Part shown: in pieces, positions 52,801 through 55,800 of the stretch
Layout: each line of letters starts with the position of its first letter
Numbering within the stretch: position 1 is the stretch's first letter
NCBI GenBank assembly: GCA_964529685.1
Contig: CAZGZC010000004.1
Span: 15,399 to 79,398 of the forward strand
DNA from: an uncultured Candidatus Midichloriaceae bacterium
GTDB taxonomy: Bacteria; Pseudomonadota; Alphaproteobacteria; Rickettsiales; Midichloriaceae
DNA length: 64,000 bases
Direction of reading: 5' to 3'
Made by a program: the position numbers

Positions 52801-55800
52801 ATAACTTTTATAAGTTATAGTATGAGAAGACAAATATATATAATTCTATTATCTCTTTTATTTATTTTATCTTTTGATAAAATATATGGAGCTTGTGGTG
52901 ATTCTAGTTGGATTGGTACTTATTCATCAAATGATAAGAAATGTAATCGCTGTAAAGAAGGGGGTATGATAAGTGATATCAATTGTAATTCAATTGATAC
53001 ACCTAGAGATATAGATCCAATGGGTATAACTTATACAAATATACCTCCAAAAAATTACTTCTCACCACCACAATATATTTACAAATTTCGTTATGGTATA
53101 TGTGGTGGAGAGAATGGGAATCCTTGGAATAACACTGGATGCAATTGGATGATATTCAAAGATGAAGTAATGGACAACAATAGAATTGTTAGTAGTCTTC
53201 AACAATGTAAAGATCAACCAAAGAATTTTCAAGAATTTAGTGATCCTTTTTTTAATATTGCTAGTGGGAAAATTTGTTTAGTAAGAGAGAATATTGAAGG
53301 ACAAAACTTTATTTCTGCTTATTTCTCTGGTGGTGATCGTGAATTCTGGATAGGCCGTCGTCCATATCCAAGATTACCTGCTCCTCCTCCTTTTACACCA
53401 GGACTTTTTCCTATACCAACTTATGCACTTCAAGAAATTACTGATATAAAAGGCTTTTCATCTAATAATATATTTCAAAAGCCTTTAGCTATTATAAACT
53501 TTATAAAAGGGTCAGATATAGTTAAGAGGCAGGAACTCCAATTAGATTTAGAGAATAGAATACTTTCTCTTGATATCGGTTCATTTAAAGTGGAAATAAA
53601 TAATGATACACCAGATCAATTGATTGTTTCCCAAGGAGACAATATTATGGGTCAGGTTCCTAGACCAGCTTTAGAACAAAACAAATCTGATATATCATTT
53701 TTTCCTTGTTATCACACCTACTTTGATCAAAAGCAACAGGCTTACCAAGGTGTATATGTATTCTCTATCAACAAAAATATGGGAGATGCTATAGGAGATA
53801 ATTTGTTTCTTGGTCCTAATTATATACCTTCGAATGAAAATGATAAGATAGGAGATATAAGAGTTACAAGATGTGATCTTTGTATAAACGCTTTTGAACA
53901 AAATAGTGGTTGGGATACTAATATATACAATAACATATATACTTTGAGTAGCGGTATTGAGATTAATAGATGTAAACTAAACAGCGATATAAGTATAAAA
54001 AAAATTGATCTTGTAGATAGCGCTAATAATAAAATTTTCTACCGAGCAAAGAATGTATGCGATGGATATACAACAATAGAAGCTCCTATAAGAGTTGATG
54101 CTTTAGATTATAAATCTTTTTCTGAATTAATCTCTTGCACTCCTTGTACTGGTGATGATTGTCTAAATTCTAATGTAAAGATGTTTAAATATGAATCTGA
54201 TTTGGCATACCTAGATAAATATCTTGTAAGTGTCCAGCCAGTTATTCCATTACTAACAAATGGGTTTGAGGCTGAATTCGTTCAAGCAATACAATTAAGA
54301 AATAATAATTGCAGTACATATACATCAGATGTGCAAGGTAATTTATATATAAAACCTGCTGGAAAAAGAGATAGAAGCTTCTGCTTTGGTAATGATCCTA
54401 ATGGTGTCTATACTTTATGTACTAATCCTAATAATGATCTTGATAGCACTGTATGTACTGGTGCTTACTCTGGATCTAATAATCCAAATACAGATCTCCC
54501 AGATAAAATCTGTATTATGAGTGGAGGAAAATGGGATTTTATATCAGGCCGCTATAAATTTGGATATAAAAATAATCTAAATGGTGATGATAAAATTGTA
54601 CCTAAGATGTCTTGTACATTTTTACCAGGATGTAAATCTCTCGGTAATGATATAGTTATTAATATAGGTAATGCTGTTTGGAATGAAAATGCTGCTTTTG
54701 GAGAAGCAAAACGAGGTAAATGCACTATTGCTTCAGATGATATATCTGATAATGATTATACATATAGAATTGATATTAACTCTTATACTATAGATGCAAG
54801 CGCCAATAACGATCCAGATTATGTAAATGCCATTAGTGAGTTAGCAGACTTGAAAAATGAAACATCTAATAAGATGTATATTAGCATAGCAGATGTAAAT
54901 ACAAAATCTTATCTTAAGAGATTTTTAGGTAATAATCTAAAGTCTCTTCAGTGCACAATAATTGAACCAACAGGACTCTGTATAGGCGGTATATATGGGA
55001 ATATAACTCCCAATACAGAATGTGTTAGTGTTAAAGAAAATGGTAAGCCGATCGTTTGCAAGGCTAAAACAAATTAAATCTATTGATTTTTATCAAATAG
55101 AATTATATAAAATGACTCGCAATGTAGAATAAGAAAGAAAATTACTACAACATTTCTAATCTTTATCATCTTCAAACTATATGGAAAAACCTTTTTATTA
55201 TATAAAATCAATTCTGATCTCAGGATTTTTATTATTTACACAGACATACGCTACAGAGACAAGGTGTACTAAAGATTTCTTAGTATTAGATGTAGGCTCT
55301 AGTACAACTAAAGGTACATTATATACAAAAGATATCTGTAATAAAAACAAAATAATTGATAGGAAAACTTTTAATCTCAACTATCAATATCAAACCTGTA
55401 TAAGTGATGCTGATGGAAAAAATATTCCAGAAAAATGCATAATAGGAGGTAGAGAAGTTATGCAAAATATAGCAAGATATTTTAGTATAAAATGTCATAA
55501 TAACTGTTTTGCTGCTGTCACAGGCTGGGCAAGATATATAAATAATCAAGAGGAGTGGTTAAATGAAATAAAAAAAATTGGTATAAAAGCTAAAATTGTT
55601 TCACAAGATTATGAAGGGGGGTTGAAATTGAGCGCAATAAAAAAGGTTTACGATAACAAACCAATTATTGCTTTTGATATCGGTGGAGGGAGTTTCCAAC
55701 TCGTATGGCAAGATGAGAATGGCAAGATACAACATTACAATAGCTTACATGGTACTGATAATTTTACTCATGAGATTCAAGATACATTATTTTCTGAAAG

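Follow-up and report, generated by a model that had tools for sequence, protein, structure and literature searches.

The 64,000-nucleotide stretch analysed here (hereafter the window), part of a contig from an uncultured Candidatus Midichloriaceae bacterium (CAZGZC010000004.1, positions 15,399 to 79,398), encodes a cysteine-rich exported protein of 751 amino acids (aa) that is the reference member of a new family. We define this family by an N-terminal signal, a set of invariant motifs and a gene lying directly after an RvhB4-II-type VirB4, the second VirB4 copy of the rvh type IV secretion system (T4SS). Judging from gene context, we lean slightly towards a physical or functional association of the cysteine-rich protein with the T4SS, and give an even chance to its being a lineage-specific extracytoplasmic accessory of the rvh system that is tied to RvhB4-II.

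Two puzzles have accompanied the rvh T4SS since its description in 2009 (PMC2653234), i.e. it has no VirB5-type surface component, ‘no VirB5 analog’ being a hallmark of the system (PMC11077975), and its second VirB4 is unable to hydrolyse ATP. No other secretion gene lies near this second copy (PMC2653234), which is devoid of ATPase active sites (PMC2653234; PMC4676284) and, with its role unassigned, has been kept throughout the derived families of the Rickettsiales (PMC4676284).

The VirB4 and cysteine-rich gene pair

The two genes of the pair are arranged in the window as follows:

50595..52820, forward strand: RvhB4-II-type VirB4 paralogue, 741 aa, with PF03135 at residues 226-369 and a degenerate C-terminal ATPase domain
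52822..55077, forward strand: cysteine-rich exported protein, 751 aa, of an undescribed family, its ATG 1 nt past the VirB4 stop

A single base separates the TAG stop of the VirB4 paralogue (52818-52820) from the ATG of the cysteine-rich gene, in line with the translational coupling that a first-pass annotation of this DNA had proposed in a side remark and that we consider the most informative feature of the locus. The description of this VirB4 as ‘dead’ was also borne out, its Walker A position reading GSKDNGAD with no G-x4-GK[ST] motif. Pfam and NCBIfam models recognize the paralogue over its first ~455 residues only (TIGR00929 scored 168.7 bits, against a cut-off of 643, at residues 5-455).

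A family member starts between -7 and +17 nt from the stop of an RvhB4-II-type VirB4 in all 11 of the 11 orthologous loci (the window, L002, L003, L004, L005, the P0007 contig, L006, L009, L011, L012 and L014). The last of these was the one new orthologous locus from a metagenome scan with the RvhB4-II alignment, which returned mostly canonical VirB4s, the pattern being common to all VirB4s. In L006 and L009 the VirB4 and its partner are each only about 24-28% identical to those of the window, and all other neighbours are different genes. Linkage of the cysteine-rich gene to the RvhB4-II-type VirB4 is tight and ancient, and because the pair has been kept across deep divergence and rearranged neighbourhoods it points to the rvh T4SS and not to a generic surface protein. 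The L009 VirB4 (P0055, 5740-8001), which precedes family member P0017, matches G-x4-GK[ST] and gave a weak AAA_10 match; the ‘dead ATPase’ state is not universal among the VirB4s paired with this family.

Three family members were not next to a VirB4 (in L001, L007 and L008), two of which have other T4SS genes nearby (within 8 kb). Compared with L002, the L001 locus is rearranged, and a VirB2 pilin gene lies at a distance of 6.4 kb from its family member, while L007 holds a 1588-aa paralogue (P0020) of ‘Ca. Fokinia cryptica’ no more than 8 kb from VirB9 and VirB10 genes. No T4SS gene was found near the L008 member (P0022).

Other cysteine-rich proteins (587-1241 aa in length, 2.4-4.3% cysteine, with a hydrophobic N-terminal segment) are encoded directly downstream of VirB4 in four remote loci (L013, L025, L028 and L037). 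A hidden Markov model (HMM) of module 1, the hairpin-plus-proline unit described below, built from family members only, retrieved the proteins of L025 (E 1.6e-7) and L013 (E 7e-5) among 2,997 background open reading frames (ORFs), with no unrelated ORF outranking either of them; a database search with the L025 protein found only itself. The VirB4 genes of L025 and L037 keep the Walker A motif, and the gene order in L028 is rpoC - xseB - VirB2 pilin - VirB4 - cysteine-rich protein. In a neighbour-joining VirB4 tree the remote loci were not firmly placed in either the RvhB4-II or the RvhB4-I clade.

The chromosomal L028 mini-locus (4454-8695) comprises a VirB2 pilin (PF04956), a 672-aa VirB4-like protein (no Walker A by regular expression) and a 587-aa cysteine-rich exported protein that carries the motif GCVERPNMDLPIV, and recalls the virB2/virB4-2 clusters of Anaplasmataceae. 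A second, unrelated family follows VirB4-like ORFs in L019, L030, L031, L039 and L044, which come from AT-rich freshwater metagenome contigs. These proteins are ~370-400 aa long and lipoprotein-like, with 11-12 cysteines and repeated ‘DHxxC…EDYLxCR’ units, and their genes are coupled to Walker-A-positive VirB4s of 831-849 aa, either overlapping them or lying 1-3 nt away; the one member scanned, from L019, had no Pfam match.

Family, domain layout and predicted disulfide architecture

The protein had previously been assigned to no known family, and the search for orthologues yielded only unnamed cysteine-rich relatives. Among 5.8 billion proteins, a word-seeded search recovered only seven sequences including the window protein (31-60% identity); an exhaustive HMMER search with a family profile, covering 1.84 billion cluster representatives, gave 33 clusters at E ≤ 1e-3. 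Full-length members are 619-1847 aa in length, with a hydrophobic N-terminus and 3.2-4.5% cysteine, and their entries are named ‘hypothetical protein’ only, some being from ‘Candidatus Fokinia cryptica’. Two genome matches are metagenome-assembled genomes labelled ‘Candidatus Fokinia solitaria’, and flagellar genes (FliE, FliF) occur on related contigs. The family is restricted to Midichloriaceae-like Rickettsiales, relatives of ‘Candidatus Fokinia’, and a literature search found no paper describing it. Intact full-length ORFs (728-800 aa) are present in at least 11 genomes and 23 cysteines are invariant across close homologues that share 31-60% identity, showing that the gene is real, conserved and strongly constrained.

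The ORF at 52822-55077 comprises 751 codons and a stop, and a recount gave exactly 28 cysteines, as first reported, all of them in the mature part (the earliest is residue 25, none lying inside the signal segment). Its cysteine content of 3.73% is the highest among the window ORFs of at least 200 aa (mean 1.5%). The window has a G+C content of 32% and contains ordinary chromosomal genes (NuoI, ClpP, LipB, NusG, IspF, FolE and tRNAs). The parts of the protein, all on the forward strand, are:

52822..52890, forward strand: signal peptide, residues 1-23, MRRQIYIILLSLLFILSFDKIYG, the only Kyte-Doolittle stretch above 1.6; the cleavage site is a predicted one
52894..53001, forward strand: N-terminal cysteine cluster, residues 25-60, with four invariant cysteines (C25, C41-x2-C44 ‘CNRC’ and C55)
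53011..53364, forward strand: first beta-rich domain, residues 64-181, from model strands and homologue alignment, ending in the module 1 beta-hairpin
53356..53418, forward strand: proline-rich motif at residues 179-199, RRPYPRLPAPPPFTPGLFPIP, its PPPFT.G core invariant
53419..53811, forward strand: second beta-rich domain, residues 200-330, containing a diverged second hairpin-plus-proline module (…GQVPRPALEQ…), from alignment, model and the module 2 HMM
53854..54411, forward strand: central region, residues 345-530, with invariant CDLCINA (351-357) and a variable insert bearing C413, C439, C442 and C447
54454..54741, forward strand: most conserved core, residues 545-640, with PDKIC (560-564), WDFISGRY (571-578) and CTFLPGC (598-604)
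54742..55074, forward strand: C-terminal alpha/beta domain, residues 641-751, ending in the four-cysteine module C711…C720-IGGIYGN…C734…C746

The N-terminal segment is the single one above 1.6 on the Kyte-Doolittle scale (19-residue window), consistent with the Sec-type signal and lack of transmembrane helices noted in the first-pass annotation. Every homologue has a comparable hydrophobic segment, followed a few residues later by the invariant Cys25, and IYG/AC is a plausible site of cleavage. A lipoprotein was considered and rejected. The window protein reads YGAC at this place and its homologues YSDC, GKDC, AKDC, MTNC, ITDC and KPLC, and since a D, N or L before the cysteine does not fit the lipobox [LVI][ASTVI][GAS]C, the protein is not a lipoprotein. 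A terminal aromatic residue is missing from the C-terminus (…CKAKTN), in line with the reported absence of a beta-barrel signature; an outer-membrane beta-barrel or autotransporter was also rejected, the C-terminal 110 residues being modelled as a small alpha/beta domain and Pfam matches being absent.

All motifs quoted in the earlier description were located, including the proline stretch. The CxxC pairs of KKCNRCK (C41/C44) and TRCDLCIN (C351/C354) are invariant in the seven closest homologues, whereas ISCTPCTGDDC (C439/442/447) is not. The motifs that are invariant among close homologues are CNRC, PPPFTxG, FFPCYxTY, CDLCINA, PDKIC, WDFIxGxY, CTFLPxC and CIGGIYG. C564 and C598 are the only residues invariant in all 28 aligned family members, and an HMM of the core (‘mid’) matches every member with E values between 1e-18 and 1e-38.

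A first AlphaFold2 run with seven sequences (pLDDT 51.5) was not used. The model built from 28 family sequences (pLDDT 86.2, pTM 0.70) is mostly beta, with two N-terminal beta domains split by the proline motif, a central region, the core and a small alpha/beta C-terminus. Strands of the first beta-rich domain were modelled at residues 64-74, 84-95, 109-116, 151-158, 161-170 and 173-181. The module 1 hairpin has the family consensus VCA…IGC; all other close homologues retain both cysteines, whereas they have been lost together from the window protein (ISA…IGR). In the proline motif, P188-P190, F191, T192, G194 and P197 are invariant. This motif is the sole internal stretch of low model confidence (pLDDT < 50 at residues 187-197) and the signature of the family and its remote relatives (GCxPxPxxPxPPPF). 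The second beta-rich domain contains the invariant FFPCYxTY (293-300), and confidence is lower in the central region (pLDDT 56-77 over residues 400-450).

The C-terminal four-cysteine module has a sushi/HRM-like spacing, yet it gave no Pfam match in the window protein and no Foldseek match. In the L013 protein (L013 8381-10978) the C-terminus matched HRM at 25.8 bits, below the cut-off of 26.2. An ending of the type ‘C..G[YF]…C..G.[WY]…C’ recurs in the family and in remote proteins (C-termini of the L025 and L037 proteins) and may point to a sushi/HRM-like module at the end of all of them.

No Pfam family matched the cysteine-rich protein (E up to 0.1) or any of the seven close homologues (E up to 10), and a Pfam/NCBIfam scan of 17 members (the window protein, six close and 10 distant ones) gave chance-level matches only, with best E values of 0.07-2.3. 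Searching the PDB sequences with the protein itself or with either of the profiles A1 and A2 returned nothing meaningful, and tblastn against 72,556 plasmids found no match. The best Foldseek matches of the model to PDB and BFVD (E 9e-3 and 2e-2; probabilities ≤ 0.33) had TM-scores below 0.1 when normalized by query length and were rejected. The modelled protein is thus without a known fold among solved (PDB) and viral (BFVD) structures, and none of the family, PDB or fold searches placed it confidently in a known family of unrelated role.

The even number of cysteines had been taken as compatible with an all-disulfide protein, and mature counts (24-64 across the family) were even in 19 of the 24 non-redundant full-length members, a tally that uses a crude signal-boundary heuristic on related sequences and is supportive, not a formal test. 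Even counts together with the confident monomer model suggest intramolecular, not intermolecular, disulfides. These features, together with the conserved cysteines and the joint loss of the module 1 hairpin pair from the window protein, fit, as indirect evidence, an exported protein with an all-disulfide architecture, and the best explanation is a Sec-exported, multi-domain, mostly beta protein stabilized by about 14 predicted disulfide bonds. In L006 the family member has a DsbA-like gene at a distance of 6 kb. No DsbA or DsbB was found within the window with a DsbA-like query from L006, 64 kb being too short a stretch to speak for the whole genome.

A 200-aa membrane-anchored protein encoded in the window (48280-48882, reverse strand) has an SPNCKTC (CxxC) motif. 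A weak thioredoxin match (E 0.036) was its only one, searches of PDB and NCBIfam being negative. It could act in the periplasm as a divergent thiol-disulfide oxidoreductase and matter for the folding of the cysteine-rich protein.

Possible roles of the cysteine-rich protein

A surface or host-interaction role, as put forward in the first-pass annotation, may apply to the cysteine-rich protein. The gene following canonical, Walker-A-positive VirB4s in the metagenome scan (L057-L059 and L074) encodes a ~238-aa cysteine-free exported protein, at an offset of -40 to +5 nt (-4 to +5 in three of these four loci), and the one that was checked, from L057, matches PF07996 (VirB5/TrbJ; E 5e-30). Minor pilins of the VirB5/TrbJ/TraC(pKM101) type and the cysteine-rich protein alike have a Sec signal and a gene immediately after virB4 and coupled to it. 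The cysteine-rich gene occupies this canonical VirB5/TrbJ position, and the rvh system has no VirB5. Its tie to the inactive VirB4 copy makes its product a candidate for the missing outer part of the secretion machine. According to work cited in PMC2653234, VirB5 is stabilized by VirB4 and pilus assembly needs no VirB4 ATPase site. VirB5, which binds VirB2 and locates to the pilus tip or cell surface, has about 220-250 aa, no cysteines and the fold of a three-helix bundle that carries a globular appendage, whereas the cysteine-rich protein has 751 aa, 28 cysteines and a mostly beta model. Homology to VirB5 was rejected on the grounds of size, the beta model and the absence of any match to PF07996 or, in PDB, to TraC/VirB5 structures. 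A non-homologous replacement of VirB5 at the surface or tip, with RvhB4-II as a non-catalytic scaffold, is conceivable from the gene context and, in our view, rather doubtful.

As an accessory of the rvh T4SS, the cysteine-rich protein would be made in a fixed ratio with RvhB4-II, cross the inner membrane via Sec, undergo oxidative folding in the periplasm and be recruited to the T4SS envelope complex or to a surface structure, with RvhB4-II possibly serving as a non-catalytic assembly scaffold. In its boldest form, which we hold only tentatively and think unlikely as a whole, the protein would be the long-missing extracellular rvh component that replaces the VirB5 tip adhesin, with the dead RvhB4-II kept as its dedicated inner-membrane scaffold and the pairing being ancient. 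If that were true, the Walker-A-bearing VirB4s that precede module-sharing relatives (L025 and L037) and the gene order of L028 would imply that the pair is older than the loss of the ATPase site and disappeared secondarily from Rickettsia.

Several points weigh against a role in the T4SS. RvhB4-II is mainly cytoplasmic and the cysteine-rich protein extracytoplasmic, and their coupling could reflect co-regulation rather than contact. The protein is unlike VirB5 in size, sequence and predicted fold. The gene block also holds an S66 LD-carboxypeptidase and an alpha/beta hydrolase without an obvious T4SS role, and reduced symbiont genomes hold synteny for long periods. In L001 the gene is intact yet separated from VirB4, so the coupling is breakable. 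Among the remote proteins, homology of those of L028 and L037 to the family was borderline (E 0.12 and 0.0045, respectively), and whole-protein phmmer and hhalign comparisons of all four (L013, L025, L028 and L037) with the family were not significant. In Rickettsia, virB4b stands alone as ‘islet E’, without such a partner (PMC2653234), and the cysteine-rich protein is therefore not needed for RvhB4-II function in general.

Other T4SSs offer partial parallels. The F-type mating-pair stabilisation protein TraN is likewise a large exported type IV protein with many conserved cysteines (F TraN has 602 aa and 22 cysteines), is exposed at the surface and binds a receptor on the partner cell. It is encoded in an F-type tra operon, whereas the cysteine-rich gene belongs to a chromosomal P-type rvh context, and homology to TraN was rejected (hhalign of family profile A2 against F TraN gave a probability of 0.2% and E 0.34, with no Pfam or plasmid match). 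All hhalign comparisons with TraN, TraU, TraH, TraG, TrbC, TraW, TraF, TraK, TraB, TraV, TrbJ and TrbB were below 1% probability, and the resemblance to TraN is one of analogy and not of demonstrated homology. Cag3 and CagM of Helicobacter and the Dis proteins of Legionella Dot/Icm are lineage-specific additions to the outer-membrane core complex. Like the cysteine-rich protein they are exported, have no archetypal VirB homologues, are encoded within or beside T4SS operons and occur in one lineage; their membership of the machine comes from cryo-electron microscopy or tomography, whereas that of the cysteine-rich protein is proposed from gene context, and the two have no sequence or fold relation.

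An alternative is that the protein is a structural, disulfide-cross-linked component, periplasmic or associated with the outer membrane, that stiffens the envelope of an intracellular bacterium, as a functional analogue of the chlamydial cysteine-rich protein OmcB, and that its position after rvhB4-II is inherited synteny of no functional significance. Chlamydia and Anaplasmataceae are known to have envelope proteins joined by disulfides, and OmcB is, like the cysteine-rich protein, an exported protein of obligate intracellular bacteria, of about 550-750 aa and 3-5% cysteine. The conserved high cysteine content and export features of the family would suit such a role, as would a block that opens with a peptidoglycan enzyme (the S66 LD-carboxypeptidase, with its lipoprotein-like signal) and the paralogues of 600-1850 aa that lie away from VirB4 in the same genomes (P0020 in L007, P0022 in L008). 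OmcB forms intermolecular disulfide networks and has no link to T4SS genes, whereas the mostly even mature cysteine counts and the confident monomer model suggest intramolecular bonds in the cysteine-rich protein. None of the 17 members scanned matched the Pfam families of chlamydial cysteine-rich outer-membrane proteins or any other Pfam family. Passive synteny also fails to predict that the pair abuts or overlaps where every other neighbour has changed (L006, L009, L013, L025, L028 and L037). We therefore regard a purely structural envelope protein as unlikely.

It is also improbable, in our judgement, that the protein is a Sec-exported host-interaction factor or toxin-like cargo, released by the T4SS in two steps, as is pertussis toxin, or by another route, and binding the host. 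Pertussis toxin is a Sec-exported, disulfide-bonded T4SS substrate and provides a precedent; as in the toxin/Ptl system, the cysteine-rich protein combines periplasmic Sec export and disulfides with a gene beside a T4SS that lacks VirB5. Its Sec signal and extracellular-type disulfide-rich architecture, the sushi/HRM-like C-terminal spacing with the near-threshold HRM match in L013, the wide range of lengths (619-1847 aa) and sequence variation expected of host-facing proteins, and a MavL-type effector-like gene nearby in the window, L003 and L004 are all consistent with cargo. The toxin is multi-subunit, however, unlike this single large polypeptide, and no similarity to pertussis toxin subunits or to the AB5 fold was found in the PDB sequence and Foldseek searches, nor any match to a toxin or adhesin family or fold. 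The HRM/sushi likeness is sub-threshold and was not recovered by Foldseek, and the long invariant motifs at 31-60% identity, with one-to-one vertical co-inheritance with RvhB4-II, fit a conserved partner-binding component better than an effector that evolves fast.

That the gene is a decaying, non-functional ORF hitch-hiking behind a dead VirB4 is most improbable; although the upstream paralogue has no ATPase motifs, no obvious Shine-Dalgarno sequence was seen upstream of the ATG and expressed pseudogenes are known in Rickettsiales genomes (PMC2653234), the intact ORFs in at least 11 genomes with 23 invariant cysteines and long invariant motifs, a pLDDT of 86 from only 28 sequences, which implies strong co-evolutionary constraint, and the conservation of RvhB4-II itself across derived Rickettsiales families (PMC4676284) all argue otherwise.

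The finding provides the dead VirB4 with a conserved and exported partner of novel structure within one major branch of the Rickettsiales, with remote analogues in others, and makes both the purpose of RvhB4-II and the ‘missing VirB5’ testable through binding of the cysteine-rich protein to Rvh components and through its location. If the link is one of synteny only, the result is a modest one, i.e. an orphan disulfide-rich envelope protein of protist symbionts. The family is confined to little-studied protist-associated lineages; it could mark Midichloriaceae-type symbionts in metagenomes, and at ~750 aa without a detectable sequence or fold relative it is a target for structure determination.

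Gene block and neighbouring genes

The pair is part of a five-gene same-strand block with gaps of 5, 1, 103 and 60 nt, the other three genes being:

49654..50589, forward strand: S66 LD-carboxypeptidase (Pfam Peptidase_S66 E 1.5e-14, S66C E 1.7e-25) with a lipoprotein-like N-terminus (…LIFIICGC)
55181..56320, forward strand: Ppx/GppA-like (ASKHA-fold) protein, 379 aa (PF02541 E 3.3e-9), with a signal-like N-terminal segment and 10 cysteines
56381..57082, forward strand: alpha/beta hydrolase, 233 aa, with Hydrolase_4 and Abhydrolase_1 matches, the last gene of the block

No terminator-like sites were found in 48800-57600, and a promoter scan stayed at chance level in this AT-rich DNA. The S66 gene, which opens the block directly upstream of the VirB4 paralogue (5-nt gap), is also upstream of RvhB4-II in L003, L004, L005, L011, L012 and probably L002, and is absent from that place in the distant loci L006, L009 and L013. 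The encoded enzyme may trim peptidoglycan in the periplasm, and the gene may be co-transcribed with that of the T4SS paralogue. The Ppx/GppA-like gene directly follows the cysteine-rich gene in six loci, including L003, L004, L005, L011 and the P0007 contig, and an exported enzyme of the Ppx/GppA type is unusual. In all 13 Rickettsia genomes analysed in PMC2653234, gppA was predicted to share an operon with virD4; the Ppx/GppA family is repeatedly linked to rvh genes. The alpha/beta hydrolase gene is kept in L003, L004 and the P0007 contig.

Further downstream, a 422-aa MavL macrodomain protein (60508-61776, reverse strand; PF24754, E 2e-58) is related to a Legionella ADP-ribosylhydrolase effector and is a candidate secreted effector; MavL-type genes occur near the same locus in L003 and L004. 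Behind the hydrolase gene, a 126-aa ORF whose product has a hydrophobic segment at its N-terminus (57072-57452, forward strand) has been kept in L003 and L004 as well. In its 3′ part this ORF coincides with a tRNA gene of the other strand (57320-57403, reverse strand), and the real coding region is therefore probably shorter.

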